From: Theionarchaea archaeon
GTDB lineage: Archaea > Methanobacteriota_B > Thermococci > Methanofastidiosales > SZ-28-30
Direction: 5' to 3'
DNA: 42,274 bases
Assembly: GCA_018992685.1 (NCBI GenBank)
Contig: JACVGT010000006.1
Span: 1-42,274, forward strand
The translations under genes were made by a program, and so were the position numbers. This document shows positions 7,502 through 38,421 of the stretch, one piece after another (the stretch's first letter is position 1; every line of letters starts with the position of its first letter). Below the pieces are notes generated by a model that saw only the letters and a program-made list of their open reading frames with translations, was not told the origin of the DNA and ran no database searches.

Positions 7502-10500
7502 CTAATATTCCCGAAGTACTTTCAGAAATCCAGGCCGGGGCTCATAAATATCTCCATCGTGCTTGAACTTTGCCAGCCACTCTCTGACAAAACTCTCAGA
7601 CAGCCCTTTGTCCTGGCTAATTCTAAAAACGTCTTCCTGCTGTGCTCCGTTGCCCTGATTGCCTTTGTCCAGGTCTTCAATGATATCTCTCAGTATGAGT
7701 ATCTTGTCACGCTGTGATTTCCGGGTTCCCGTCATTAAGGTGTCAATATCCATCTTGCCAGTTTCTGTGTCCATGGCTACTTTAACCAGGCACTCTCTGA
7801 ACAGTCTGATAACCTCTTCTGAGTCCTCTTTTTCCACTCTTTCTGCAAGGCGCATCCGTGCCCTCGCTTCTGACAGCCTGATCAAGGCTTCAAGCTGTCG
7901 AGCAGTGATGGGAACAGGGGCATCTTCTGATTCCCCACCTTTCCGCATCTGCATGTAAAAGTTCAGCAATTTCTGGGCAGCTTCCTTTGTCAGTAGTGGC
8001 TTCACATTATTCTTTGCATACATGATGTATTTTTCCAGCAGATCAAGCGAAATGGGCTGGGTCACAGCTTCGTCAGGGCGCCTGTGTATGTTAACAATAT
8101 GCTCTGCAATACGCCGATCGGTGTCTTCGTGCGGTCTGTCTGTGATTATGTACACCAGGTCAAATCGGGACAGTAACGTAGAAGGAAGGTCAATCTGGTC
8201 AGTAATTGACTTATAACTATCAAAACGTCCATACTTAGGGTTGCAGGCTGCCAGAACTGATGTTCTCGCATTCAATGTGGCCACTACTCCTGCTTTTGCT
8301 ATGGAGATGGTATTGTGCAGGAGAAGGCCTGCGGCTGCAAACATGTGGTCGGTCACTGTCACATCATACACCCATTGGGCTGTGTGATTGGCGATTTCGT
8401 CCACCTGCTCCACCTTCAGCACACTTACCCCCTCCTGGCCCAAGGGTCCAGCTTCACCTTTGAACCCACTATGCTCTTGGCTCATGGTGGTTTCAGCCAG
8501 GTGTACGACTGGTGTCTGTTCAGTGCTGTCCGGACTGCCCAGAACAGTCATGAGGCCGCTAGCACCCCTCTGTACTGTTACTGCATGTTCTAAATCCGGA
8601 GGACCTGACTGGATAGAGAGTGCATAGAGACTCCTTCCATGAACGTCCTGAGAATGAATTGAAGCGTGCATTCCCATGCACAGAAAGGCATCCTGGAAGT
8701 CTTCCGCCAGCTCCCGAGAACGTACCAGGATCTGACTGTTCTCAGCGGGAGTCCAGAGCTTATCCTCTGGGTTGGTACTGGTATTGTCCCTGATGACAGC
8801 ACTCTTCAGGAATTCACCTATCAATTGAGGAGAACACTGCAGTATCTTGTGAGGAACGCGTTTTTTCGAGAATAGTCCAACCAGTTCAGGAAAATTCATT
8901 TTGATGAACTCATATAGTGGCATACAGGGACATCTCAGTTTAAAAACAGGGGTACCCTTCCTCTTTCTATCATGAATGAACGAGTATGCTCCAAATTCCT
9001 CTTGAAGGATGCTTTTTGCGTCCTCTATGATCTTTTTGTCACGACTGAAGATAATGACCTCCGAAATCTTGTTCTTCTTATTGAAATAGATATGACCAGC
9101 ACCGGTTATGTAACCCAACAGCCTGGCCAGTTTGTAGGTCATCTCTTGCGGAAATCGTATTCTGTTCATTGTGGCGGTGTGTTTCAAATGGCTGGCTCCA
9201 GGAATATGATATCTGGCCGCTCCTGGGACAAGTAGACCGGTACGTACCTTTTCTGCAGGAACAGTCTGGATTTTGCCTCTTTCATATATGAAAACGGGAT
9301 GCTCGGGCGTGACAGTGATTCCTCTTCCGTTTGAGTAGCGAATTCGAACAAATCGATCAGGAGCTTTGTGCCTGCTCACCCCTTCCACTGCCGTTGTTCC
9401 CCTGATGGACACCAGTTCATATCCCGACACGGGCAGAATTTCACAGTTCACTCCTTTAACAGGTTCCCGATTCTCCATCAGGTTATCCACGAATTCTCCA
9501 ATTCTGACCTTTTCCCCGGTTGACAGCAAAATTTCAGTTTCAGGATGATATGATTGCTGTTCCAGTGCTTCATGGATAGCCGATCTATCATCAGTGGACA
9601 TCTTATCTAATTCATCAATTGCACACAGTCCCCCATCTGCAAGCACCAGGGCGCCTGCCTCCAGAGCCCAGCCCCCTGTCAGCTCATCTCTTACCACGGC
9701 CGCCGTCAGTCCCACTCCGGACACTCCCTTTCCGGAGGTATACACTCCTCGAGGGGCCAACCGTGCTACATACTGGAGAATCTGACTCTTAGCAGTCCCT
9801 GGATCTCCCACAAGCAGTATGTTGGAGTCCCCACGCAGCCGCGTTCCATCTGAAAGGACTCTGAACACCCCAGAAAAGAGCTGGAGGGCAATAGCCTCCT
9901 TCACGTCTTCATGACCGTAGATGGCAGGAGCTATGGAAGACACAATTTTCTCACAAATGAAGGGTTCTGCACTCAACCTTCTGATTTCCTCCTCATCTTC
10001 CTTGGAAATCTCGATTTCTTCCACGACCTTCTCCCGCATTTCGACATGGTTGACTTCGGCATAAATATGAAAGGTTGTTTTCAATCCTCTTGAGGCCGTC
10101 TCCTGCTGCGTCTTGAGAATTCCCACAATGTTCACTCTGTTTCCTGCCTGTGCCCGATCTACAATATCATCCCGTATAATGCAGTCCACTGATCGAGGCA
10201 TCTTCCCCCCCCGCAGCCTCTCAGGCCGTTCCTGGACCTTCACCGACTGCCAGTCCACGAATTTGGATTGATTCTCAATAAGTTTGAAGGGCCCCTGTCT
10301 TCCGCAGGCTGGATTAGTACACATGGTGGGCTTCTGGAAGATGTGGGAGTCCTGTTCCACAATCAGGAGCTGACCACACCTCTGGCATTCAAATACTGCC
10401 TCTACAATCTCTGGTTTCACCTCGGATATCCGCCGTACCACCCCTTCGATTTGAACGAGTTTGTTGATGTGTTCAGAACGCAGGTCACGGATCTCCACTC

Positions 10501-10786
10501 TGGCCGGCGTCACATTATAAAATCGCACGTGCAAGTCAATTCTTTGTTCAGGACGGTACAACGTTTCAAAAGCAGCATCGCTGGCGGGAAGTGCAAACAT
10601 GGGTTCATCAATAATCAGCTGAGAAAGTTCATAATCATGATCCAGCACATGCTCAAAATCAACACTCAATGATCTCAAATAGTTAACCCTGCACCTGTTG
10701 ATCTCCTGCATGTAAACCGGGCTGTCCATGGAGGGAAATGTTTCTAGAAAGTCCCTAAATCTGTTCATCGCTTCTTCGAATTCCAT
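7502..10786 (-). CDS. mcm: Replicative helicase MCM, intein-containing (680 aa after splicing)
   Basis: Zn finger CQRC/CTNPAC, GDPGTAKSQ Walker A, IDELDKM Walker B, LLSRFD arginine finger, ITARQLE. Confidence 0.98.
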   Translation of the reverse strand: MEFEEAMNRFRDFLETFPSMDSPVYMQEINRCRVNYLRSLSVDFEHVLDHDYELSQLIIDEPMFALPASDAAFETLYRPEQRIDLHVRFYNVTPARVEIRDLRSEHINKLVQIEGVVRRISEVKPEIVEAVFECQRCGQLLIVEQDSHIFQKPTMCTNPACGRQGPFKLIENQSKFVDWQSVKVQERPERLRGGKMPRSVDCIIRDDIVDRAQAGNRVNIVGILKTQQETASRGLKTTFHIYAEVNHVEMREKVVEEIEISKEDEEEIRRLSAEPFICEKIVSSIAPAIYGHEDVKEAIALQLFSGVFRVLSDGTRLRGDSNILLVGDPGTAKSQILQYVARLAPRGVYTSGKGVSGVGLTAAVVRDELTGGWALEAGALVLADGGLCAIDELDKMSTDDRSAIHEALEQQSYHPETEILLSTGEKVRIGEFVDNLMENREPVKGVNCEILPVSGYELVSIRGTTAVEGVSRHKAPDRFVRIRYSNGRGITVTPEHPVFIYERGKIQTVPAEKVRTGLLVPGAARYHIPGASHLKHTATMNRIRFPQEMTYKLARLLGYITGAGHIYFNKKNKISEVIIFSRDKKIIEDAKSILQEEFGAYSFIHDRKRKGTPVFKLRCPCMPLYEFIKMNFPELVGLFSKKRVPHKILQCSPQLIGEFLKSAVIRDNTSTNPEDKLWTPAENSQILVRSRELAEDFQDAFLCMGMHASIHSQDVHGRSLYALSIQSGPPDLEHAVTVQRGASGLMTVLGSPDSTEQTPVVHLAETTMSQEHSGFKGEAGPLGQEGVSVLKVEQVDEIANHTAQWVYDVTVTDHMFAAAGLLLHNTISIAKAGVVATLNARTSVLAACNPKYGRFDSYKSITDQIDLPSTLLSRFDLVYIITDRPHEDTDRRIAEHIVNIHRRPDEAVTQPISLDLLEKYIMYAKNNVKPLLTKEAAQKLLNFYMQMRKGGESEDAPVPITARQLEALIRLSEARARMRLAERVEKEDSEEVIRLFRECLVKVAMDTETGKMDIDTLMTGTRKSQRDKILILRDIIEDLDKGNQGNGAQQEDVFRISQDKGLSESFVREWLAKFKHDGDIYEPRPGFLKVLREY
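8312..9553 (-). mobile_element. Intein (414 aa) in MCM with degenerate LAGLIDADG domain
   Basis: Interrupts EALEQQ|TISIAKAG; begins SYHPET, block B TPEHP, block F VYDVTV, ends HN before Thr. Confidence 0.95.
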
Positions 10787-19287: not shown

Positions 19288-21666
19288 ATGTGGAAAAGAA
19301 CCAGTATATTCATGTTTCTCCTCTTGATACTGACTGCAGTGCCTGACACTGCAGCGAGCCCTGCGCTCGACGTGCGAATGAGTGAGAATGTCGTGGCAGT
19401 CGCTGCAGGGAGTCCTGGTACAGTCCAGGTAACCTATGAGAATGTTGGAGATTCTCCTCTCCACATATACCTGGTAATTATTGATGATGGAAGCAATGCA
19501 CAATCACCCCGGCCTGTTCTGGTATACGACGGACAGCCCTTCACCACAGCCGTCAATACGGGAATTATCTTCGGTGAGATGGACTTGCCTGTAGGAGAAT
19601 TCGAGACCATGGACATTACCTTCCGGGTTTCTGACACCGTCACCCAGGGAGACTATGCCTTTCGCATGGCAGGATATCAGGAAAAGGTTGGAGATACCTA
19701 TATTGGGTACGGAGAAGAGAGTTTTGTCGTAAATGTTGGTTCTCCCACACTGTCTGCTCCCGCTTTAATAAGTCCTCAGAATGAAGCCCAGGTGACAGGC
19801 ACCCCTGTGCTGCAGTGGTCAGGCGTTCCTGGTGCAGAAGGATATGCGTACGAACTTTCCATGAGCCCTGATGTGGATGAGAATGGCCACTTTCTCGCGG
19901 GTGTTTGCTCTGGTTCCACTACCAGTGTCTCCATAGGAGTCACCTGCACTCTTCAGAAAAACACGTGGATTTACTGGCATGTGTGGGCGTACGCGGGGGA
20001 AAAGACGAGCCCGGTCAGTGCTGTTTTCAGGTTCATGATCACTGATGCGAATACAGCCCCTGTCATTCTCAGTGCTACAGTCACTCCACAAACAGGGGAT
20101 TCTGATACGGTATTTACCTTTACGGTCAAATACCAGGATCAGGACAATGATTCAGGAATAGTCCACGTCTATATTGATGGTATCGAATTCGACATGGTTC
20201 CCAGAGACCCCACAGACACGGTGTACACAGATGACTGCACATACCAGCATGAGACTGTGTTGCCTGAAGGCGTTCACAATTACTTCGTTGTCTGTGAGGA
20301 CGGGAGAGGAGGGACCAGCAGGTATCCTGAGTCTGGTACTGTGTCAGGGCCTGTTGTATCGAATGGAGCTGCACTGACTCCACCAATTCTGGTGAATCCT
20401 CAGAATGACGCCAGCATAGATGCTGTCCCTGTTCTGACCTGGTCAGTGGTGTCAGACGCTGAAGGGTATGCGTGGGAAATGTCACTGGGGTCTGATGTAG
20501 ACCAAAATGGTCGGTTCTTGAGCATCGTGTGCTCAGGCACGTCCACCACACCAAGTGCTGCCGTTTCCTGCGATCTGCAGAAGAATACGTGGATTTACTG
20601 GCACGTATGGGCCTACGCAGGAGAGGAAATAGGCCCCATCAGCAGTGTCTCTCGATTCGAAATCGTGGAGCTGTTACCCACTCCAGTTCTGAATTCGCCG
20701 GCCATCAATGCAGTGGATGTGGAATTGAGGCCCACGTTCTCCTGGAGTGCTGTAGAAAAAGCATCCTCCTATACTGTTCAACTGGCCACAGATTTCTCTT
20801 TTCTGAGGATTATCATTGATGAAACTGTGAGCGCCACCTCATATGTCCCCTCTTTTGATCTGCAACCGTCCACCACGTACTACTGGAGAGTGAGGACTCG
20901 CTCTGATGGGCAGACAAGTGAGTGGGCATCAGGATATTTCACCACACGGTCAGTTTCTGGGCTGATGCAGCCCCCCATCCTGTCCTATCCTTCTAATAAT
21001 ACGAAGGACGTGGAATTGCGTCCTATTTTTTCCTGGAGTGTGATGGAAGGGGCGGGAGCGTATGTCATCCAGGTTTCTACCAGTTCTTCTTTTTCCCACT
21101 TCGCCATCAATGAGAAGGTCACTGCGTCATCATACATGACCTCTTTTGACTTGGAGCCTGAAACTCAGTATTTCTGGAGAGTGAGAGCTGAAAATGAGGA
21201 GGGTCCCAGCGACTGGTCCCCGTACTGGTCTTTTGAAACAACGGTTGTGGAGAAAAATGTTCTTGAACCACCCATTGTGGCCACGCCAGATGGTGAAGAA
21301 GGAGAAGGGGGAATCAGGCTGTCCTGGAATGCAGTTGATGATGCTGATCTGTATGAGATCCAGGTGAATAAGACAAAGGCGTTTCCTGAGAGTTCACTGG
21401 AGAAGATGAGTTCTGTTACTACCATGGAGGTGACCACCACCTCTGCAGAGGTGAAGCTTGCAGCGGGGATCTACTACTGGAGAGTCAGAGCCAGGAATGA
21501 GGATGGAAGCAGTGATTGGTCAAAAGGCGACCACTGGTTTGTGATTGCCGAAATGAATACGCTTAAAAACGTGGTGTTTGATCCTTTGGTGCAGGGCATG
21601 GTGGTGATCTCAGCTGCCCTTTCTATCATCTACGTTCTGGTCCCCTTTTTCAGGAAGAAGAAATAG
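19288..21666 (+). CDS. Secreted, C-terminally membrane-anchored surface protein with tandem Fn3/Ig-like domains
   Basis: Signal peptide; repeats of P-x-L-x-x-P...W...Y...YYWRVRA; C-terminal hydrophobic helix plus RKKK; GAGGTGA RBS; TATA at 19185-19192. Confidence 0.85.
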   Translation: MWKRTSIFMFLLLILTAVPDTAASPALDVRMSENVVAVAAGSPGTVQVTYENVGDSPLHIYLVIIDDGSNAQSPRPVLVYDGQPFTTAVNTGIIFGEMDLPVGEFETMDITFRVSDTVTQGDYAFRMAGYQEKVGDTYIGYGEESFVVNVGSPTLSAPALISPQNEAQVTGTPVLQWSGVPGAEGYAYELSMSPDVDENGHFLAGVCSGSTTSVSIGVTCTLQKNTWIYWHVWAYAGEKTSPVSAVFRFMITDANTAPVILSATVTPQTGDSDTVFTFTVKYQDQDNDSGIVHVYIDGIEFDMVPRDPTDTVYTDDCTYQHETVLPEGVHNYFVVCEDGRGGTSRYPESGTVSGPVVSNGAALTPPILVNPQNDASIDAVPVLTWSVVSDAEGYAWEMSLGSDVDQNGRFLSIVCSGTSTTPSAAVSCDLQKNTWIYWHVWAYAGEEIGPISSVSRFEIVELLPTPVLNSPAINAVDVELRPTFSWSAVEKASSYTVQLATDFSFLRIIIDETVSATSYVPSFDLQPSTTYYWRVRTRSDGQTSEWASGYFTTRSVSGLMQPPILSYPSNNTKDVELRPIFSWSVMEGAGAYVIQVSTSSSFSHFAINEKVTASSYMTSFDLEPETQYFWRVRAENEEGPSDWSPYWSFETTVVEKNVLEPPIVATPDGEEGEGGIRLSWNAVDDADLYEIQVNKTKAFPESSLEKMSSVTTMEVTTTSAEVKLAAGIYYWRVRARNEDGSSDWSKGDHWFVIAEMNTLKNVVFDPLVQGMVVISAALSIIYVLVPFFRKKK
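19750..20664 (+). repeat. Intragenic domain duplication A (19750-20040 and 20374-20664)
   Basis: Shared AEGYA, DVD-x-NG-x-FL and identical LQKNTWIYWHVWAYAGE. Confidence 0.85.
20674..21240 (+). repeat. Intragenic domain duplication B (20674-20946 and 20965-21240)
   Basis: Shared DVELRP-x-FSWS, SFDL-x-P-x-T-x-Y-x-WRVR. Confidence 0.8.
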
Positions 21667-28257: not shown

Positions 28258-28866
28258 ATGGTAGTAACCTTCTTCATACAAGGGTTCCTTATCGGTGTTG
28301 CAATCGCGGCTCCAGTTGGCCCTATTGGCCTTCTCTGTATCCAGCGGACTCTTTCTGAAGGATGGATTTCAGGGTTCGTCTCAGGGATGGGAGCTGCCAC
28401 TGCTGACGCCGTGTACGGGTGCATTGCTGGGTTTGGAGTAACAGTCGTCTCATCTTTCTTGGTCAGTCAGCAGATGCTACTGCGATTATTCGGTGGTGCA
28501 TTCATTATTCTCTTGGGTGGCAGGATCTTTGTTTCACCACCTGCAGAAAAGGCAGCTGTTCAAGGAGGGGGGAGTCTCATTACACGCTATGGTTCTACTC
28601 TTGTTTTAACACTCACCAACCCTATGACCATTCTTTCGTTTGCAGCCATTTGTGCGGGAGTGGGGATTTCTACCTATGGGGATGCAGGGCTGTTGGTTCT
28701 GGGGGTTTTCATGGGATCAGCAGTGTGGTGGTTCACGCTAAGTGGGTTGGTTCATCTGGTTCGATCTCGGATTGATCAGAAGAGAATGCAGTGGATAAAC
28801 AGGGCTTCTGGTGCTATTCTGATGGGAATTGGTGTTGTTATCCTTTTCAGCCTGGATGCTTCTTAG
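28258..28866 (+). CDS. LysE family translocator
   Basis: IAAPVGPIGLLCIQRTL, GAATADAVY, LTLTNPMTI, GSAVWW. Confidence 0.95.
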   Translation: MVVTFFIQGFLIGVAIAAPVGPIGLLCIQRTLSEGWISGFVSGMGAATADAVYGCIAGFGVTVVSSFLVSQQMLLRLFGGAFIILLGGRIFVSPPAEKAAVQGGGSLITRYGSTLVLTLTNPMTILSFAAICAGVGISTYGDAGLLVLGVFMGSAVWWFTLSGLVHLVRSRIDQKRMQWINRASGAILMGIGVVILFSLDAS

Positions 28867-28892
28867 AATGAGGGGGTAAACTCGGTACTCAG

Positions 28893-29159
28893 TAGCATGA
28901 AAATGAGAAGATAAACCCTGAAAAGGACGGGATTACAGGGATGAGATACTGTTTCAATGTTTCTGTGAAAAGATTCTCGGGGTACCCAGCGGTACCTTTA
29001 TATGGTAATACTAGGATGAAGGCGCGGGTGAGACCCTTGAGAGATGAAAAGATGCACAAGAAAGGATCAATTGTTGTAGTATTGATCCCATATCTGTTAA
29101 ATTCTTCAAATGAAGACGACGCTGTATCACCCTTGGAGCTGGAATGTTGGAGGTGATGA
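28893..29159 (+). repeat. Duplicated promoter/leader cassette, copy 1
   Basis: About 90% identical by manual alignment to 30395-30663; TTTATAT 28997-29003; ends in the RBS of the M50 gene. Confidence 0.95.
29052..29156 (+). CDS. Candidate 34-aa leader peptide, copy 1
   Basis: MHKKGSIVVVLIPYLLNSSNEDDAVSPLELECWR; frame and stop kept in copy 2. Confidence 0.35.
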   Translation: MHKKGSIVVVLIPYLLNSSNEDDAVSPLELECWR

Positions 29160-29160
29160 T

Positions 29161-30324
29161 ATGCTTGAAACACCCCTTCTGTTGTCCCTTGCGAGCCTTT
29201 CGATGGCTCTAGTCAGCATAGCAATGTCAGTATGGGTCCTGACAAACCGTGAGGCACAACAGACCGAGGAACATCTCATTATGCCTAGAGACTTCATTCC
29301 TTGGTCTGAAATTGACTCAATAGATCTTAGACACAGCAAATCAAAGCCTAGGTGGCTGACTCTGTCTCTCAAAAACAAAGAAGAGAAAAAATACGACTTG
29401 AAGTTCTTCAGAAACCGGTGGGTTCTGGTCAGCTATCTGGACCAGATATCTGGAGAGAAGGGATTCACATTTTTCTCAGACATACCTGTTCCGCGACAAG
29501 AGGAACCGCTCGGTGCCTTGAGAACTGTGGAATACAAGGGGAAGGTGATACCCGATGTCAGTTTCCCCCCACGGATGAAACTAGCAGTATATGGATTCAT
29601 GGCTATTTTTGTGTTGGGATTATCCTATGTTTTCCTTGGAGTGGGGACCACGGCGCTTATTGCCATTGTGCTGATGGTACACGAGGCTGGTCATCTTGTG
29701 GCTTCAAGACTCGTGGGCCTGAAGCTGGCACTTTCGTCGCTCCTCCCGTTCGCAGGTGTGGGGACATGGACAAATCCATTTTCCTCGTCAGAAGCCGAAG
29801 CTGGGGTGGCCCTGGCAGGCCCAGTGGCATGTTTGGCCCTGTATGGAGTTACAGCATTGATCGATCCAGAACGCGGACTCTTCCATGAGGATGCGGTGAG
29901 AGGGTTATACTGGTGGATGGCCCTCCGTGGGCTTCCAATCGTCTTTCTAATAAATGTGGTGGATCTGTTGCCCATCTTCCCTTTGAACGGTGGAAAAATA
30001 CTGAAGGCAGTCCTTCTGAAAACAAGGAGAAATGCACTTGTAGTAACAGTAATTACCATGGTGGTCTGTGCAATCATGGGGATCGGGCAGAGGAGACTCT
30101 TCTTCTTTGCGGCCTTTGGCGTTGGTCTGTTTTGCCTAATGGCTAATAGTGGCATGTATGTCAACTGGAAGCGACTCAATGGGCCAGTGCCCGACAATGA
30201 CCGTCCCCCTTTGTGGAAATCTGCTGTGACTCTCCTGCTCTGGATAGCAGTTGTGGTACTGTACTGGGTAGCCCTCCCTATGCTATCTCGATTTTTGCTG
30301 CACGTGGATTATGGGATTCACTGA
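29161..30324 (+). CDS. Site-2 protease (M50) family membrane protein with N-terminal bPH-like domain
   Basis: HEAGH, VALAGP, variant DLLPIFPLNGG; N-terminal TM plus IPWSEIDSI; ATG after GGAGGTGA. Confidence 0.85.
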   Translation: MLETPLLLSLASLSMALVSIAMSVWVLTNREAQQTEEHLIMPRDFIPWSEIDSIDLRHSKSKPRWLTLSLKNKEEKKYDLKFFRNRWVLVSYLDQISGEKGFTFFSDIPVPRQEEPLGALRTVEYKGKVIPDVSFPPRMKLAVYGFMAIFVLGLSYVFLGVGTTALIAIVLMVHEAGHLVASRLVGLKLALSSLLPFAGVGTWTNPFSSSEAEAGVALAGPVACLALYGVTALIDPERGLFHEDAVRGLYWWMALRGLPIVFLINVVDLLPIFPLNGGKILKAVLLKTRRNALVVTVITMVVCAIMGIGQRRLFFFAAFGVGLFCLMANSGMYVNWKRLNGPVPDNDRPPLWKSAVTLLLWIAVVVLYWVALPMLSRFLLHVDYGIH

Positions 30325-30394
30325 CAGAAAACTCCATGAAGAGAGAGAGGGCAGATCACTGCAACTTGCCTGTCTTCTCTTTTTTTTCTTTTCA

Positions 30395-30663
30395 TAGTAT
30401 GAAAATGAGAAGAGAAACCCTGAAAAGGACGGGATTATAGGGATGAGATACCACGTATCTACGTTTTTGTGAAAAGATTCTCAAGGGACTCAGCGGTACT
30501 TTTATATGGCAATACTGGTACAAAGGCGTGGGTGATACCCTTGAGAGATGAAAAGATGTACAAGAAAGGATCAATTGTTGTAGTATTGATCCCATATCTG
30601 TTAAATTCTTCAAATGAAGACGACGCTATATCACCGCTGGAGCTGGAATGCTTGAGGTGATGA
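30395..30663 (+). repeat. Duplicated promoter/leader cassette, copy 2
   Basis: Direct repeat of 28893-29159; TTTATAT 30501-30507; ends in the RBS of the RHS gene; preceded by an oligo-T tract. Confidence 0.95.
30556..30660 (+). CDS. Candidate 34-aa leader peptide, copy 2
   Basis: MYKKGSIVVVLIPYLLNSSNEDDAISPLELECLR. Confidence 0.35.
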   Translation: MYKKGSIVVVLIPYLLNSSNEDDAISPLELECLR

Positions 30664-30664
30664 A

Positions 30665-33600
30665 GTGAGAACATTGAAAACAAGTATGCTGGTGGTTGTA
30701 CTGTTTGTAGGATACATTGCCAGCACTCAGGTCATGGGAACTCAAGAGAGCGTCTCTTCAGAGAAGGCACTGGCTAGTCAGGAGGGGCTAGGGAGAGAAA
30801 AAACGAGAGGCAAAGTATTCACTTTTTTGAAGGACATTGACTCCAAAGAACAAAAGCCTTTTTCAAAGAACGCTGGAAACAGGGGATTTTTCTCAGATGA
30901 AACTGAAGAACAAGGATTCTTTTCAGAAGGCAGTGAACCCATTTCTTCACTCTACATTGATCCCCGCCAACCATCAAATCCTACCATCAATCCTTGCACC
31001 AATATGGAGTTTGACTATGAAGCAACGTCGCCCTATTACAAGGCCTTATTCAGGGATGGGACACTTCGAATCTACGTCGCAGGGAACTACATTGAATTTA
31101 GACTGAAAGAGAATTACCTGACAGCAAAAGAAAGCACTCGCATTGCTGAGGAGCCTTCAGTCAAGGAGAACTGTCTCTCAGTTAGTGAAAATACCATATC
31201 CGTCTCCGAGATTTTCGAAGCCATCGATCTCTCCTACAGAGTTGGAAGCTCTCAGATTGAGGAAGCTCTGACTGTCAAACAATTCAGGTCTATCGAGAGG
31301 CTCATATACGAGATTTCCTGGGAAGGACTCACACCAGAGGTTCAGGACGACGGTTCCATCATCTTCTCCGGTGACAAACCGCTCTTGGTGATCCTGCCCC
31401 CCTCCATGACTGACGCTCAGGGAGATGAATGCCGTGATCTTCATTACGAACTGATAGAGACAGAGAACGGGCATGAACTGCACAAGGTTGTGGATGAAAA
31501 AGGGGTGGAGTGGCTACAGCATGCGCACTTTCCTGTGGTACTAGATCCTCTGGTCGAAACCATTGAAGATGCATGGGAATCATCTGGGTTCACACCATAC
31601 GGGAAATACTTCGACAACTTCCAAGAACATGTCAACATTCTGAATGGTCATCTCATCGTATCACAGACGGATCTTGATATTCCAGGAAGAGGTCTGGACC
31701 TTGTGATATCGAGGATATATGAGACACCAGCTGTATTTTATCAGGCAGAGCCCTATGATTATACAGCACCACCTGTGAACGTCGGAATAGGATGGCGACT
31801 GGATTTTCCCTATGTCGGTGAAGAGTACCTCTACTCATGGGGCGGAGGAATATACAAGATTGAATGGTCAGGCGATACGTTCACGAACCATACCGGCAGC
31901 CACTTTGTTCTCGTGAAGAACGCCGACAACACGTACACACTGACAGGGGCAAACGGTACGGTATGTGAATTCGACACTACTGGTAAGATAACACACATGA
32001 GAGATTTGGACCAGAATACTATAACGTTCAATTACACCAGCGGAACTCTTACAAGCATCACTGATACCATCGGACGTACAGCTACTCTCAGCTACTCTGG
32101 CGGGTACTTGTCTGCAATTTCGTACAATGGTACTGTGATTGAATATGGAATCAATGGCTACGGCAACCTGGTTTGGGTGGACGATGTCCTGGACAGGAGA
32201 ACAACCTATAGCTACGACTCGGGGTGGACTGAGTGGTTCTACTATGGGTCAGGATACGCTCTGAAGGAGAATCTCTACCTGCTCACGCAAATAGGCTATC
32301 CCACAGGAGGTTACTCTCAATATGAATACGACAGGTTCTCTTACAATGACCTCTATGGCGGCAGTTCCTGTCTTGACTACTACAAGTACTTCGCGACAGA
32401 TCAACGAGTCTATGAAACGACCCAGGCAAGGCACAACGTGTACTCTTTTTACGGAAACTTCGACATCATCAGCGATTGTGATGTGACAACAAAGGACGAG
32501 TATGACATAACGCAGGGACTGTATGACTTCTCTCTGGATACATCCAGTGGCCTGGTTGTCCAGATGGCTCTTGAGAACGCATCACAGGCAACAATACGGA
32601 AATATGCATTTACATATAGTTCACAGAAACAGCTCAAAGAGGTGGAAGTCTACAACGACGGGGCAACTCTGTCGTACGTCAAATACTATGCCTACGATGA
32701 CTGGGGCAACCTGATATACTCAAAGGATCCAGAAGGGCACGAAGAATTCTTCTCCTATGCACATACGTCCACCTCAGGGTTCTTTGTTAATTACAGTGGA
32801 ACAGTGGTTCAGACCTTCACCAATGCGTTCTCAAATGACCCTGTGCCGGACTCCGTTCACACGGTCTTAATAGGCATGGCAGAGAAACAAGATGGTACCC
32901 ACGTAAGGGAAACCTACTTCGAGTACGATTCTGAGGCTCATCCAACACAGGAAAAGAGTTCCTTTGGAGCCTACACTACCTGGCTGACGGTTTCAGGTAC
33001 CTTCAATGAGAAGACTGGATCAACGAGCTTTCCTGTTGATCTGACAGGTCACACAGTGGTTGGAAATGCAGTCCTACGGATTGCAGGACTGCCTTCTGAC
33101 GATACGTATACAGAGACCCATTCAGTCCAATGTAACACCAACCCCTCTGTTCAATGTACGTGGAACGGTGGATACTGGTTAGGCAAATACTACAGTGTAT
33201 TGTGGATGTTCTGTAGCTTTCCTCTGGATTGTGACAGTGGAAGAGTCTCTATTGGTCCTTTCGTTCATTACCCTGGAACCTTTGGATACCAGAGTTACAC
33301 GACGAATCCAAGCCTAGGAGGAAAATCCAACTCGTTTGCCGTTACGACATACTGGAAAGCATATCCTGCTGAGGTGCAGTATAACCTCGACGGTTCTGAT
33401 TGGACAACGGTAACCACGAATCTGAGGAATTCTGCAGCGCAGGTGGCAGTCCCCATCACAGATGGAACACATACCTTGAACTTCACTGAATCTTCATCGC
33501 TGAAAACAAAATTCTCGTGGACCTTGTACGTCCCCGTGGACACCACTCCTGAAACATACATCACAACCACAGCATATGACGCGTATGGCAATGTAGAGTC

Positions 33601-36214
33601 TGTCACAGACCCTGGAGGACACACAACGACCTTTGGGTATTCGGCTGATTATGGACATGCCTACTTGACGAGTATTACCAATGCGCTTGGACACACAGCA
33701 TCTGCAACGTATGATTCTTCGACAGGAAGGATTCTCTCTTCAACAGATCCAAAGGGGAATACCGTCGCCTTTGAGTATGACCTCATGGGCAGAATAACAA
33801 AACGTATCCATGCAGATCTTTCAGAGGTTGAAGCTGTCTACGACGATTCGAATCTCATTGTTACTATCTTTGATGAACTGGATCACTACACCAAGACGCG
33901 CTACGACAAGATTGGCAGGCTCGTGCAGACTGACTACTACTTGAATGATACGCTCTATGCCACAGAGGTCTTCACGTACAACTACCTGGACAAGCACGTA
34001 TCGTATACAGATCCCCTCCTTCAAACGTACTACAATGAGTATGATTTCCTGGGCAGGACAGTTAAAACCACAAAGCCTGATAGCACGTTCACGACAACGC
34101 AGTACGATGACACCAACAATGTGAAGACGGTTCTTGACGAGAATGAGCACAAGAAGCAGTACAAGTATGACTGGATGGGCAGACTGCTGTGGGTAAGAGA
34201 ATTCATTGATGAAACCACCTACTATCTCACCGAGAGTACCTACAATGAGACAGGAAACATCACATCCATAACGGATGCCAATGGAACCACCACGAGCTGT
34301 GAGTATGACGCTCTTTTCGGCATGACGAGAACTTTATATCCAGACAGCACAACGGAAATCTTTGCCTACGATGTCGTGGGGAATTTCACATCGTATACAG
34401 ATGCCAATGGAAACACCACGAGCTATCAGTACAATGCTGTCTCGCAGCTGATCTCAGTTGAGTTTTCAGACGAATCATCTGTGGAACTTGACTATGATGC
34501 AAACGGTAACCGCACCCTCATGGTGGATCCAGCTGGAACTTCAACGTATGTGTACGACAACAGGAACCGCTTGTGTCAGGAGACGAGGACTATCGACGGA
34601 ATAGCATACACTGTCGGGAGACAATTCGACATAGCCTCTCGCACAGTGGCCACAACGTACCCCGAAGGAACGACCGTCACTTTTGTATACGACGATCTCA
34701 ATCGACTGACTTCCATTTCAGGCTACGCTGACTTCACTTACAACGCGAAATCTCAGGTTGAGAGTGTTGCCTATGCAAATGGTGTTCAACTGAGTATTTC
34801 CTACGGACCGTGCTGCAGCCAGCCGGCACGATTTCTTGCAACGAAGAGCGGAGCCACTCTCCTGGATCTGCTCTACACCTACGATGACGCAGATAATATA
34901 CTGGAAATCGAGAAATACATCTTCAATCCCGAAACACAGGTGCTCGAGGACTCTGTTGATCAATACACGTACGACTGGCTGGATCGAATAGTGACAGCGT
35001 CAGGTGATTTTGGCTCGCTCTCGTACAGCTACGATTCGGTGGGCAACAGGACGTCACTCAATGGAACGCAGTACGTGTACAACTCAATGAGTGAACTTGA
35101 ATCCACCAGTGAAGGGACGAGCTTTGCATATGACCAGAACGGGAATCTGGTCAGCAAGACCAATACTCACGTGTGGACATATCAGTACGATTTCAGCAAC
35201 CGACTTGTGGAGGCTGGCTACGATGGACAGATGATTGGCCAGTATGTGTACGATGGAGACGGAAGGCGTGTCAAGAAGACAGAATGGTCAGAATCGATGC
35301 AGGTATTCCAGAGCAGGATATACGTGTACGAGGGCATCAGCGTTCTGTATGAGAAGAATGTTGACGCAGGAATGGAAGCACTTTATATCTATGGAGCAAC
35401 TGGGCGAATTGCTGAGAAAACGGATGATATGACATTCTATTACCACAACGATTACCTGGGATCACCGAGGATTATCACAGATGAGGATGGCGTTGTAGTT
35501 ACGGGGATAGACTATCTTCCTTTTGGGGAAAGTGAGTTGAAGGGGGAGTCTGAGGACTATCTGTTCACAGGAAAAGAGGAGGATGTGTCTGAGCTGTACT
35601 ATTTTGGTGCACGGTACTATGATCCAACACTTGGGCGGTTCATCAGCAGGGATCCTATTCGAGGAGTAATGAGTGACCCGCGTAGTCTGAATCGGTACAC
35701 ATACGTTCTGAATAACCCTCTGAAATACCGTGATCCTTGGGGAGAGAAACCGGCAGATGAAGAATGCAGTTGTGAGTCAGACGTTGACGAACTTCTAGAC
35801 TTGTTGGCTGCCGCCGAAAATCAAATCAAGGAATTTGAACATGACATTGAGGAGGCAGAGTATCTTCTTGAACAGTATCAGCCACGAGTAGAGTGGTGCG
35901 ATAAAGCGCGTGAAGCCACTAGTTTCAGTATCGTTCAGAGTGTTCCAGAACTTGTTCTGACACTCTTCATATGGTACTACATAGAGGCGCCTTGCTGGAC
36001 ACAGAGAAGTGGAGTAGATAATACGCATCAACGCATAAAAGATCTGGAAAGATCAATTTCAGACCTCAAAGAGGACGCAAATAAATTCAGAGCGGAAATA
36101 AAGAAGAGGTGCTCCTGCGCGCTTCCTGAAGATGATGGGTTAGGGTCTACATCTTCAGATGATGATTCTCCGTTGCCACCAGGAGCAGGTCGTCCCGACA
36201 TTTTTGAGTGCTGA
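30665..36214 (+). CDS. Secreted RHS/YD-repeat protein (polymorphic toxin-like)
   Basis: Signal peptide; DUF6531-like VNILNGHL...DLDIPGRGL; YD repeats; core LYYFGARYYDP..GRFISRDP and NPLKYRDPWG. Confidence 0.95.
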   Translation: MRTLKTSMLVVVLFVGYIASTQVMGTQESVSSEKALASQEGLGREKTRGKVFTFLKDIDSKEQKPFSKNAGNRGFFSDETEEQGFFSEGSEPISSLYIDPRQPSNPTINPCTNMEFDYEATSPYYKALFRDGTLRIYVAGNYIEFRLKENYLTAKESTRIAEEPSVKENCLSVSENTISVSEIFEAIDLSYRVGSSQIEEALTVKQFRSIERLIYEISWEGLTPEVQDDGSIIFSGDKPLLVILPPSMTDAQGDECRDLHYELIETENGHELHKVVDEKGVEWLQHAHFPVVLDPLVETIEDAWESSGFTPYGKYFDNFQEHVNILNGHLIVSQTDLDIPGRGLDLVISRIYETPAVFYQAEPYDYTAPPVNVGIGWRLDFPYVGEEYLYSWGGGIYKIEWSGDTFTNHTGSHFVLVKNADNTYTLTGANGTVCEFDTTGKITHMRDLDQNTITFNYTSGTLTSITDTIGRTATLSYSGGYLSAISYNGTVIEYGINGYGNLVWVDDVLDRRTTYSYDSGWTEWFYYGSGYALKENLYLLTQIGYPTGGYSQYEYDRFSYNDLYGGSSCLDYYKYFATDQRVYETTQARHNVYSFYGNFDIISDCDVTTKDEYDITQGLYDFSLDTSSGLVVQMALENASQATIRKYAFTYSSQKQLKEVEVYNDGATLSYVKYYAYDDWGNLIYSKDPEGHEEFFSYAHTSTSGFFVNYSGTVVQTFTNAFSNDPVPDSVHTVLIGMAEKQDGTHVRETYFEYDSEAHPTQEKSSFGAYTTWLTVSGTFNEKTGSTSFPVDLTGHTVVGNAVLRIAGLPSDDTYTETHSVQCNTNPSVQCTWNGGYWLGKYYSVLWMFCSFPLDCDSGRVSIGPFVHYPGTFGYQSYTTNPSLGGKSNSFAVTTYWKAYPAEVQYNLDGSDWTTVTTNLRNSAAQVAVPITDGTHTLNFTESSSLKTKFSWTLYVPVDTTPETYITTTAYDAYGNVESVTDPGGHTTTFGYSADYGHAYLTSITNALGHTASATYDSSTGRILSSTDPKGNTVAFEYDLMGRITKRIHADLSEVEAVYDDSNLIVTIFDELDHYTKTRYDKIGRLVQTDYYLNDTLYATEVFTYNYLDKHVSYTDPLLQTYYNEYDFLGRTVKTTKPDSTFTTTQYDDTNNVKTVLDENEHKKQYKYDWMGRLLWVREFIDETTYYLTESTYNETGNITSITDANGTTTSCEYDALFGMTRTLYPDSTTEIFAYDVVGNFTSYTDANGNTTSYQYNAVSQLISVEFSDESSVELDYDANGNRTLMVDPAGTSTYVYDNRNRLCQETRTIDGIAYTVGRQFDIASRTVATTYPEGTTVTFVYDDLNRLTSISGYADFTYNAKSQVESVAYANGVQLSISYGPCCSQPARFLATKSGATLLDLLYTYDDADNILEIEKYIFNPETQVLEDSVDQYTYDWLDRIVTASGDFGSLSYSYDSVGNRTSLNGTQYVYNSMSELESTSEGTSFAYDQNGNLVSKTNTHVWTYQYDFSNRLVEAGYDGQMIGQYVYDGDGRRVKKTEWSESMQVFQSRIYVYEGISVLYEKNVDAGMEALYIYGATGRIAEKTDDMTFYYHNDYLGSPRIITDEDGVVVTGIDYLPFGESELKGESEDYLFTGKEEDVSELYYFGARYYDPTLGRFISRDPIRGVMSDPRSLNRYTYVLNNPLKYRDPWGEKPADEECSCESDVDELLDLLAAAENQIKEFEHDIEEAEYLLEQYQPRVEWCDKAREATSFSIVQSVPELVLTLFIWYYIEAPCWTQRSGVDNTHQRIKDLERSISDLKEDANKFRAEIKKRCSCALPEDDGLGSTSSDDDSPLPPGAGRPDIFEC

Positions 36215-36611: not shown

Positions 36612-37370
36612 TTGTGTAAGCAGGAGGTGAGACAAATCACTGAAAAGAAAATCATTCAAAGGCAAATCGCTGAAAGATCTTATGTGAGTGTTACGGTTGC
36701 GACTCCTACTTTGAGTAGAGCAGAGGACTTGATAAGAGGTACATCATATAATGGCAAAGCAGGTTCATATCCCTTATATGCATTCTTTCTCTATAGTGAT
36801 ATGGATGAAGATCTCGCTGAATTCATAAAAAAGAAAGGATATTGGCTCCATTGTTTGAGTGGCGACGATTGCCTTATCGGCGCATTCGAAAACCCAGAAG
36901 ACTGGGGGAGAGGGTGGAAAAATCACTGGCAGGAAAAGCTCGGTTTTTTGTATTGGTCAGCTCAAGAAGAATGGACGAAATTGGAGGCATGTGACCGAAA
37001 TCTAGCATTCTGTTTGGCTGACAATCTGGGGATTGAGAAAAATGCTTTGCCATGCATGGTCTTTGCAGAATCTTCATTCAGCACAAGAATCTTGTGTTTA
37101 CCCATAGTTGCTGACAGAGACGACTATCAAAAGTACTTTCAGGACATCTTCGCTGCCGTTAGTACTGCCGCAAAAGCAGATACTGGTTGCAGACTTCAGA
37201 CCCTTCAATCTGAATGGGGAAAGATCTGGAGAAAATGGATTCTTCCTAAAAAAATTGAAAATCTGTCAGAAACAATCCAAGAATGGGGTTCCATCATTAG
37301 GGAGACGACATGCATTATCATAGGTGTTGCAGAACCTCTCAAATTCCTTTTTGGAAATAAAAGCATGTAG
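36612..37370 (+). CDS. Hypothetical protein (possible thioredoxin-like fold); start uncertain
   Basis: Long ORF in AT-rich DNA; FFLYSDMD, LHCLSGDDC, LADNLGI...LPCMVF pattern. Confidence 0.65.
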   Translation: MCKQEVRQITEKKIIQRQIAERSYVSVTVATPTLSRAEDLIRGTSYNGKAGSYPLYAFFLYSDMDEDLAEFIKKKGYWLHCLSGDDCLIGAFENPEDWGRGWKNHWQEKLGFLYWSAQEEWTKLEACDRNLAFCLADNLGIEKNALPCMVFAESSFSTRILCLPIVADRDDYQKYFQDIFAAVSTAAKADTGCRLQTLQSEWGKIWRKWILPKKIENLSETIQEWGSIIRETTCIIIGVAEPLKFLFGNKSM

Positions 37371-37430
37371 TTTTGATTGGGCTTTCTCGAAGCTCTCAGA
37401 ATGATTGAAAGTTCTTCTTGATCATTTCAT

Positions 37431-37622
37431 TCAAGTCACCTTGCTTTCTTCAAATAGATCTCTTTCTGTGATCTCTATTCGTGTACCTTTAACAGCATAG
37501 ATATTCTCAATACTCCAGAAACAAGTATCTATGATATATTCATCGTCCCTATGTGAAGCAGCTATTTCTCTTATAATTGGTATGCCAATGAATATTCTTC
37601 TTGCCAAATATCCAGCCAGCAT
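37431..37622 (-). CDS. Small hypothetical protein or gene remnant
   Basis: 63 aa with GGTGA RBS, co-oriented 31 nt after the preceding gene. Confidence 0.45.
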   Translation of the reverse strand: MLAGYLARRIFIGIPIIREIAASHRDDEYIIDTCFWSIENIYAVKGTRIEITERDLFEESKVT

Positions 37623-37653
37623 TTTTTCACCTGTCCATTCGATCCACCGATAC

Positions 37654-38421
37654 CTAGACGCGTGAACCTACATCAATCATTTCCTTCTCTAAACATCTTG
37701 CCAAATATCTCATAATATCGATCACAACTTCAATAATCATCTCAGTTGTCATTCTTGGCGCTGGACCGGGATGTGGTCCCCCGTAACTAAGAAATCTACT
37801 CAAATCACTGGTCAGTTTCCTTAAATTCTTCAAAAACTCCTTATTCTCCTCTAGGTCTTTTAGTTCTATATTCTTTATGAATTTATCCCTGAGTATCTGA
37901 ACTGCATTTCTCAATGAGGTTCTTGCACCTTCAACATCATTTTCCTCCAGCCTTGAATGAGAATCAAAGAGATAGCTTGCAGCCTTATCCAAGATATCAT
38001 TCTTAACGACAAAGGATATCAACCTCTCTTCAATTCTTGACAGTGTTCCAGCAATTCTTTCTGAGCTGTAGTCAAGAGCTTTGATCTCAAAAGGAAAAAC
38101 AGGCTCACCGTTGTAGTCCACAACCAGGATTGAGATTGTGTAGTTTCTAGCCACATTGAGATCTAGTACATCCTTTTCAGGAAATGCTATACGGGGCACC
38201 CAGATTTTTTCCAGCATATCAAAGTAATTTTCTGGTTCTAGCTCCAATTTCCTCATGGGTTTGAATCTTTTTATCAGCTTGTTATTGTTATCAACAATCT
38301 CAATTATAAAAAACCTTAGAATCCCTCCTTTACTAATGAAAGGAAGTAATCGATATAGATTCTTTAGGTTTACGCAAAGACCTTCCTCAAATTCGATTCT
38401 CTCAGTCACAATAGCTGGCAT
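37654..38421 (-). CDS. Hypothetical protein with C-terminal HEPN-like helical domain
   Basis: AASYL...GARTSLRNAVQ...LSYGGPH...EMII pattern; AGGTGA RBS. Confidence 0.7.
   Translation of the reverse strand: MPAIVTERIEFEEGLCVNLKNLYRLLPFISKGGILRFFIIEIVDNNNKLIKRFKPMRKLELEPENYFDMLEKIWVPRIAFPEKDVLDLNVARNYTISILVVDYNGEPVFPFEIKALDYSSERIAGTLSRIEERLISFVVKNDILDKAASYLFDSHSRLEENDVEGARTSLRNAVQILRDKFIKNIELKDLEENKEFLKNLRKLTSDLSRFLSYGGPHPGPAPRMTTEMIIEVVIDIMRYLARCLEKEMIDVGSRV

Follow-up and report, generated by a model that had tools for sequence, protein, structure and literature searches.

A duplicated promoter with a putative small leader gene, possibly translationally coupled to two unrelated downstream genes in an uncultured archaeon

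The 42,274-nucleotide (nt) stretch of DNA analyzed here (the window, i.e. contig JACVGT010000006.1 of the Theionarchaea archaeon assembly GCA_018992685.1) carries on its forward strand two copies of a cassette of about 270 nt. The first of these (copy A) lies 3' of a LysE-type gene and 5' of a gene for a Peptidase_M50-like (M50-like) protein, while the second (copy B) is situated between the M50-like gene and a gene for an RHS-repeat protein. The reading we favor, to which we would give an even chance of being correct, is that the cassette combines a duplicated promoter with a small leader gene that is translationally coupled to the gene downstream of it. A first-pass annotation, made from the letters of this DNA, had described a conserved structured RNA inside a duplicated leader. 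The duplication is borne out by the alignment of the two copies, with 89% identity over 209 nt (28951-29159 versus 30455-30663) and 95% identity over 57 nt (28893-28949 versus 30395-30451), and no further copy is present in the 3.03 Mb and 45 contigs of the assembly, of which the window is contig C20.

Under the favored reading, a B recognition element (BRE)/TATA-like element (28994-29005) would start transcription near G29026, and GGGUGA, the first letters of the resulting mRNA, would provide a small open reading frame (ORF) with its Shine-Dalgarno (SD) sequence. This ORF would be translated first, through the conserved core of the cassette, and translation would end at UGA 29154-29156 inside the SD sequence of the downstream gene. 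The downstream ribosome-binding site (RBS) and start codon would be folded in a hairpin, whose 5' arm UAUCACC lies within the small ORF, so that a ribosome on the small ORF would open the hairpin and terminate beside the start codon of the next gene. In this way the M50-like gene (copy A) and the RHS gene (copy B) would rely wholly or mainly for their own translation on that of the small ORF, with coupling brought about by RNA unfolding and/or by termination and reinitiation. We infer the start of transcription, the translation of the small ORF and the coupling itself from sequence features, the first of these from the position of the TATA element.

The promoter assignment derives from the genome's own architecture, as defined by its 1353 SD-led ORFs. 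In these, the frequency of TATA-like words is highest 31-40 nt ahead of the start codon, at 131 per 10-nt bin, compared to a background of 19-31 per bin, with one bin at 40, between -260 and -131. The 7-mers most enriched 26-52 nt upstream of starts are CTTTATA (7.6-fold), TTTATAT (5.7-fold) and TTATATG (8.8-fold), the most enriched words together spelling AAACCTTTATAWA, and TTTATA is commonest 36-40 nt before the start (32 cases versus 16 in the next bin). The stretch ACCTTTATATG (28994-29004) matches this consensus, and is identical in copy A, copy B and a contig of a second strain that is described below. The first T of its TTTATA is exactly 40 nt from the TTG at 29037, in the modal bin for the genome, such that the element corresponds to an archaeal BRE/TATA element by the organism's own consensus. 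Similarly, GGGTGA (29026-29031), which the first-pass annotation had regarded as the 5' strand of an RNA helix, occupies the position of an RBS: it ends 5 nt before TTG 29037, and of 667 cases in this genome, 310 have 4 nt and 137 have 5 nt between GGTGA and the start. The alternative start, ATG 29052, also has an SD-like sequence, AGAGATGA, 4 nt upstream. The TATA-like word nearest to the downstream gene is TTAAAT (29097-29102), 64 nt before the start of the M50-like gene, and this distance fits a downstream gene that is the second gene of an operon.

Several features of the small ORF are those of a coding sequence. Its product would have a basic start, two lysines, followed by 12 hydrophobic residues (GSIVVVLIPYLL; judged by eye from the translations) and an acidic tail. 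Copies A and B differ at six positions within the ORF, of which three are synonymous and the other three are conservative (H/Y, V/I and W/L). The sole difference of the second strain in this ORF is a third synonymous variant of one proline codon, which is thus found as CCC, CCG and CCA. Taking the copies and the strain together, 4 of the 7 substitutions leave the amino acid unchanged, where a fraction of 0.21 would be expected (p = 0.04). The codon-usage score of the ORF falls in the 45th-50th percentile of 2298 real coding windows, a level that is reached by only 3-4% of 19,990 open off-frame windows (density ratio 4-5). The stop TGA at 29154-29156 is located inside the SD sequence of the M50-like gene, GGAGGTGA, and 4 nt before its ATG at 29161; copy B has the same geometry, with TGA 30658-30660 standing 4 nt before GTG 30665, and the surrounding GAGGTGATGA (29150-29159) is identical in both. 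Hence, in both copies the two ORFs are co-directional and 4 nt apart, in keeping with the few nucleotides that separate the members of coupled gene pairs.

The distribution of differences along the cassette is uneven. A 91-nt core (29033-29123) with a single mismatch between copies and more divergent flanks, as noted in the first-pass annotation, is indeed present: the copies differ at 1 of 91 positions (29055) in the core, at 16 of 82 on its 5' side, a significant contrast by Fisher's test (p = 0.001), and at 5 of 36 on its 3' side (29124-29159). When the cassette is divided into zones, block 1 (28893-28949) shows 3 differences in 57 positions, the middle zone (28951-29032) the aforementioned 16 in 82, and block 3 (29033-29159) 6 in 127 (4.7%), the last two being distinct in divergence by Fisher's test (p = 0.001). 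Within the middle zone the 20-nt spacer that follows the TATA element has 6 differences, i.e. 30% divergence between copies. The contig of the second strain, which is about 3% diverged and spans the 3' end of the M50-like gene, copy B and the 5' end of the RHS gene, offers an orthologous comparison with copy B. Here block 1 has 1/57 differences, the middle zone 10/85 and block 3 1/127 (middle zone versus block 3, p = 0.0006). Given the spacer diverged by 30% and the recurrence of the same zone pattern in the strain, the identity of the core is not merely that of a very recent duplication. Moreover, the core coincides with a small ORF that has a genome-typical promoter and start, and most of its conservation is therefore explained without a riboswitch-like RNA.

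The remaining component of the favored reading is the masking of the downstream RBS. The two strands of the predicted RBS hairpin are provided by TATCACC (29125-29131), which like GGGTGA is identical in both copies, and by the SD region of the downstream gene. It is the one structural feature that stands out statistically. Copy A has a minimum free energy (MFE) of -12.5 kcal/mol for it (z = -1.56), compared with -18.9 kcal/mol (z = -4.92) for copy B. Among 134 genes of the genome with a GAGGTGA-type SD, copy B ranks first both in hairpin stability and in occlusion of the SD, and copy A ranks 15th in stability. The first-pass annotation had proposed that alternative pairing of UCACC could hide or free this RBS; the hiding is supported in silico, copy B having a probability of pairing between UCACC and the downstream RBS of about 1.0 and copy A one of 0.2-0.4, while the alternative pairing on which a two-state switch would depend is not (see below). 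When 29119-29136 is forced to be single-stranded, the predicted fold mostly frees the SD in copy B, and in copy A the SD re-pairs elsewhere.

Several observations weigh against this interpretation. If the adjacent pair of changes at 29132-29133 is counted as one event, the synonymous fraction becomes 3/6 and the excess is reduced (p = 0.12). An open frame of 39-42 codons is not rare in this DNA, and one minus-strand frame is likewise open in both copies, with 0 of its 4 changes synonymous. The 91-nt core lacks any synonymous change, which is more constraint than the peptide alone needs; its nucleotides may matter for RNA or DNA reasons, or may represent a conversion tract. The coding status of the ORF rests on three near-identical sequences, no homologue having been found in the collections searched, and in the strain comparison block 3 (1/127) is not significantly more conserved than the adjacent RHS coding sequence (8/336; p = 0.46). 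The hairpin of copy A is unremarkable by its z-score and leaves an SD accessibility at the 27th percentile. Finally, TTG is the least used start codon of the genome (95/667), and the 16S rRNA is not in the assembly, so that the organism's anti-SD sequence is not readable.

Searches for relatives of the cassette covered several collections. The 276-nt leader DNA recovered only chance matches of 19-32 nt (E = 0.002-0.007) in 60 genomes of relatives, and a 42-residue peptide nothing below E = 0.088 in the same genomes. A covariance model of the leader likewise gave only chance matches in these relatives, the best non-self match scoring 22.4 bits and another being located inside a gene coding for 268 amino acids (aa). 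Scans of metagenomes with peptide patterns (550 pattern matches) and with the M50-like protein (297 pattern matches) yielded no confirmed hit, and pattern scans of a genome collection with the hairpin codons and with block 1 gave no match each. No candidate emerged from a word-indexed search of a collection of 5.8 billion proteins with a 71-aa ORF of the region, nor any usable match from the ESM Atlas, nor any from NCBIfam. A HMMER search over 1.84 billion representatives returned one match, a 1067-aa repeat protein with 22% identity per repeat, which we judged to be spurious. Within the genome itself, we found no similarity to the cassette upstream of at least six other loci of RHS paralogues, and nothing comparable precedes the closest M50-like paralogue (contig C9). 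In the collections searched, the cassette is restricted to one species-level lineage. Among 18 runs, no RNA run containing the locus was found.

This restricted distribution, and the fact that there are two copies only, would agree with an explanation in which there is no dedicated device at all. According to it, a promoter with a 5' gene fragment was duplicated, for instance when the M50-like gene was integrated by a single crossover, with conversion tracts and patchy recombination generating the uneven divergence, and with the hairpins and the open frame being incidental. We regard this as unlikely, if the best placed of the alternatives. The locus does look accessory: on a 12.7-kb contig of a related organism there are 26/151 differences to the LysE-type gene (28700-28850) and unrelated sequence from 28850 on. 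As the relative's contig diverges right after this gene, the block comprising leader, M50-like gene, leader and RHS gene appears to be an accessory insertion. Further, the divergence of the strain is patchy along its contig, that of block 3 does not stand out from neighboring coding DNA in the comparison given above, and perfect 8-bp hairpins are common, with 13 in the window, where 30 Markov simulations gave 7.6 on average and at most 16. However, the spacer has diverged by 20-30% while blocks 1 and 3 remain at 95% identity, and the zone pattern recurs between orthologous strain sequences, where conversion between paralogous copies does not explain it. Likewise, the frame, the stop within the SD and the 4-nt gap have been kept in both copies although the surroundings of the start codon differ, and the codon usage is gene-like.

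Somewhat less probable, in our estimate, is a non-coding structured 5' untranslated region (UTR) of about 135 nt that acts as a translational switch, in which a ligand, a protein or temperature shifts UCACC from the RBS to another partner. This is close to what the first-pass annotation had envisaged, and all the elements that it named (the 8-bp stem, the letters of the UCUUC/GAAGA hairpin, and GGUGA and UCACC) occur without change in the two copies. Folding predicts that the RBS is sequestered in each, to a striking degree in copy B, whose substitutions at 29147 and 29160-29161 strengthen its hairpin. Between the copies, one stem pair changes from G-U to G-C. The invariance of the core includes even sites that would be synonymous in the small ORF, as well as the 19 nt that precede ATG 29052. 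Yet folding does not support the closing GGUGA/UCACC helix: in neither copy does its pair probability rise above 0.0, and imposing it raises the energy by 6.0 kcal/mol in copy A and by 7.2 kcal/mol in copy B. The RNAalifold consensus retains the 8-bp and the UCUUC/GAAGA hairpins, and pairs UCACC with the downstream SD GGUGA rather than with the 5' GGUGA. Taken whole, the leader of copy A (29026-29165) is no more stable when folded than shuffled sequence, 34 of 200 shuffles doing as well (z = -0.96); that of copy B is more stable (z = -3.46; 0 of 200), with nearly all of the signal coming from the 3' RBS hairpin. Copy A gives the 8-bp hairpin a pair probability of 0.6 and copy B one of 0.96 (local z = -1.97), and the invariance of the UCUUC/GAAGA hairpin means that it gives no information on covariation. 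In an alignment of only two sequences, compensatory changes are absent from all 36 predicted pairs, and one pair has a one-sided change. Position 29132, which pairs with a G of the SD in copy A, is C, G and A in the three available sequences, so that the pair is broken and the proline is kept. The Rfam search proposed along with the switch found no match at gathering score among 4227 families in the whole window, and the 8 matches from a permissive scan of 28860-30700 all had E >= 1.2 and scores well short of the gathering values. Neither the Rfam scans nor the pairs of the two-sequence alignment support a free-standing conserved structured RNA, and the covariance model had only chance matches in the 60 relatives. 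In addition, the TATA peak 31-40 nt before starts implies that 5' UTRs are short in this genome, and one of 135 nt would be atypical.

An improbable third possibility is that the conserved elements are operators at the DNA level, with the 25-bp palindrome GGATCAAT-N9-ATTGATCC and the TGAAAAG repeats binding a transcription factor that co-regulates both genes. The palindrome is perfect and has a dimer-like spacing. Each cassette has three TGAAAAG words, one in block 1 and two downstream, and the sole other such triple within 160 nt in the genome is inside a methyltransferase-like gene. Block 1, which is about 80-135 nt upstream of the predicted transcription start, is conserved upstream of the promoter to the same degree as the core and without a coding or structural explanation, in that no open frame in it carries synonymous changes and it folds only weakly (z = -2.49); it is possibly a regulator-binding region. 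Nevertheless, the palindrome would lie 38-62 nt downstream of the predicted transcription start, a placement that is unusual for an archaeal repressor. It has no perfect or near-perfect copy before another gene, the 9 other loose matches in the genome all being mismatched, and the geometry of the stop within the SD is left unexplained. The palindrome, the repeats and block 1 may, however, coexist with any other reading.

A number of further candidates could be set aside. A minus-strand ORF of 94 aa over copy A is interrupted in copy B by an indel of 2 nt, and its codon changes in block 3 include no synonymous one; a 71-aa ORF from ATG 28941 does not keep its 5' part in copy B; and an in-frame extension of the M50-like protein from ATG 29110 is closed by a TGA in the same frame of copy B. 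For the small ORF to be joined to the downstream gene by a +1 frameshift, slippage would have to take place at AGG-U, which on inspection offers no slippery re-pairing, and both downstream proteins have hydrophobic N-termini of their own. An integron attC-like repeat finds only the word GTTAAAT with no inverse core, again on inspection, and the second "cassette" would be 5.5 kb, while the sole support for a C/D-box small RNA consists of chance-level SNORD15 matches (13.7 bits). The positions of the features that we retain are collected in Table 1.

Table 1. Features of the two cassette copies and the genes that follow them (positions in the window)
Feature	Copy A or single position	Copy B	Strand	Basis
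Cassette copy A: upstream block, promoter, small ORF, RBS of M50-like gene	28893-29160		+	Direct repeat
Cassette copy B, preceding RHS-repeat gene		30395-30664	+	Direct repeat; spanned by strain contig
Block 1, possible regulator-binding region; CCCTG..CAGGG and first of three TGAAAAG	28893-28949	30395-30451	+	Conservation
Archaeal BRE/TATA-like element; ACCTTTATATGG (copy A), ACTTTTATATGG (copy B)	28994-29005	30498-30509	+	Match to enriched 7-mers
GGGTGA, predicted transcript start region and SD of small ORF	29026-29031	30530-30535	+	5 nt before TTG 29037
Putative small ORF; 39 codons from TTG 29037 or 34 from ATG 29052, stop TGA 29154-29156	29037-29156	30541-30660	+	Open in both copies
Perfect 8-bp hairpin/DNA palindrome, GGATCAAT-N9-ATTGATCC	29064-29071 and 29081-29088	30568-30592	+	Within small-ORF codons
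UCUUC/GAAGA 5-bp hairpin	29103-29107 and 29112-29116	30607-30620	+	MFE and consensus structures
Predicted RBS hairpin; 5' arm UAUCACC (29125-29131, inside small ORF), 3' arm GGUGAUA	29121-29164	30624-30667	+	Predicted fold
Gene A, M50-like (HExxH) membrane metalloprotease, 387 aa	29161-30324		+	Pfam Peptidase_M50, E = 3e-07
Gene B, RHS-repeat protein, 1849 aa, GTG start		30665-36214	+	Pfam RHS_repeat, E = 1.2e-41

The closest relatives of the M50-like protein are at the level of paralogues, with 32-34% identity. Its N-terminal stretch of about 110 residues (29161-29500) recurs in several proteins of this genome (e.g. C9:125247-125534 and C11:36161-36457) and of a genome of the same genus, at 24-35% identity, which points to a shared uncharacterized module. 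The RHS protein has a YD-shell/RHS core near its C-terminus. At least six further RHS-repeat loci of the genome (on contigs C18, C7, C6, C27, C17 and C23) encode proteins that are 36-63% identical to it from about residue 100 and have different N-termini. The RHS genes on C18 and C7 share a conserved upstream stretch of about 120 nt starting with TTTAAATAAA, which may be another long leader. On the 3' side of the RHS gene there are two ORFs without a Pfam family (36612-38421), the first with a sub-threshold match to an IS1249-like transposase (E = 0.025), and beyond them, on the minus strand (38463-42269), a gene for a 1268-aa protein with a novel STAND NTPase 5 domain; the neighborhood could be one of immunity or defense. 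Elsewhere in the window, a gene for the MCM replicative helicase (7502-10786, minus strand) is split by an intein with a LAGLIDADG endonuclease domain, and the genome encodes a TATA-binding protein whose family has matches only in the 4 archaeal genomes among 14 controls. Together, these two genes confirm that the host belongs to the archaeal domain. A set of direct repeats with a 624-nt period and 71-76% identity (19748-20642) is contained in a gene for a 792-aa protein with Ig/fibronectin-type domains and represents tandem domain duplications.

If the small ORF is a translationally coupled leader gene, the cassette would be a compact coupling device of the upstream-ORF (uORF) type, with masking of the RBS, in an uncultured archaeal lineage, and a single duplicated unit would control both a polymorphic-toxin (RHS) gene and a membrane protease. 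It would add to the few known post-transcriptional devices of archaea as well as to the small proteins that gene callers miss. It would also call for caution in genome scans, in that what is taken for a "conserved structured RNA" between a promoter and a gene may be a small gene that has escaped annotation. What these implications amount to in practice is limited by the confinement to one species-level lineage and by the inferred nature of the proposed steps.

Among known regulatory systems, riboswitches and other RBS-sequestering cis-regulatory RNAs resemble the cassette in that an anti-SD sequence, UCACC, is predicted to hide the RBS. In contrast to them, the cassette has no match among the Rfam families, no covariation between the two copies aligned and no candidate ligand pocket, and its alternative conformer is disfavored.

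A second comparison is with bacterial leader and arrest peptides that unmask a sequestered RBS, such as those of the MifM-yidC2 and SecM-secA systems (PMC4423224, PMC10987492) and the erm leader peptides (PMC5118997). Points of resemblance are a small upstream ORF, in whose putative product an N-terminal part that is basic and then hydrophobic was noted by eye, an acidic segment, NEDDA, near the 5' arm of the RBS hairpin, and a downstream RBS in a predicted stem-loop; of the genes that follow, one codes for a membrane protein and the other for a protein that is probably exported. On this analogy the ORF could encode a regulatory leader peptide, in which a signal-dependent pause of the ribosome, e.g. 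at NEDDA before the 5' arm of the hairpin, would hold the downstream RBS open. Were this so, nascent-peptide sensing would control whether a membrane protease and a secreted RHS toxin are made, but we consider this reading very improbable. The small-ORF peptide has 39 residues versus 95 for MifM. Given the length of the ribosomal tunnel, the hydrophobic part of a 39-residue peptide could not exit the ribosome before a C-terminal stall, and force sensing by such a peptide is implausible. NEDDA merely resembles the DEED of MifM (PMC4423224). In the arrest peptides that monitor Sec and YidC, the uORF is directly upstream of a sec or yidC gene (PMC10987492), unlike the Peptidase_M50-like and RHS-repeat genes found here. 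The host is archaeal rather than bacterial, and without homologues an arrest motif is not definable. No report of an archaeal leader that senses its nascent peptide was found in the literature searched, and the word archaea is absent from the main text of PMC10987492.

The third comparison, which is with pairs of closely spaced genes, is the one that accords with the favored reading of a promoter and small leader gene coupled to the gene downstream. Translational coupling of such pairs has been shown in Haloferax volcanii and Escherichia coli (PMC6728339, PMC10666635, PMC12548453). In Haloferax, reinitiation works at very short gaps, loses about 60% when the gap is 13 nt and no longer occurs when it is 22 nt (PMC10666635), and models of coupling by RNA unfolding and by reinitiation have both been described (PMC12548453). 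The upstream partner in the cassette is, unlike that of the known pairs, an orphan ORF of 34-39 codons rather than a normal gene, and the whole unit, including its promoter, has been duplicated before two unrelated genes and is known here from sequence alone. In common with the known pairs, the two ORFs are co-directional, the upstream stop is 4 nt before the downstream start and inside its SD, and the hairpin predicted over the RBS includes part of the upstream ORF. With its 4-nt gap and the predicted masking of its RBS, the geometry of the cassette thus fits both of the published coupling models, and, on a judgment poised midway between doubt and confidence, its mode of action would be closest to that of a translationally coupled gene pair whose downstream RBS is masked.

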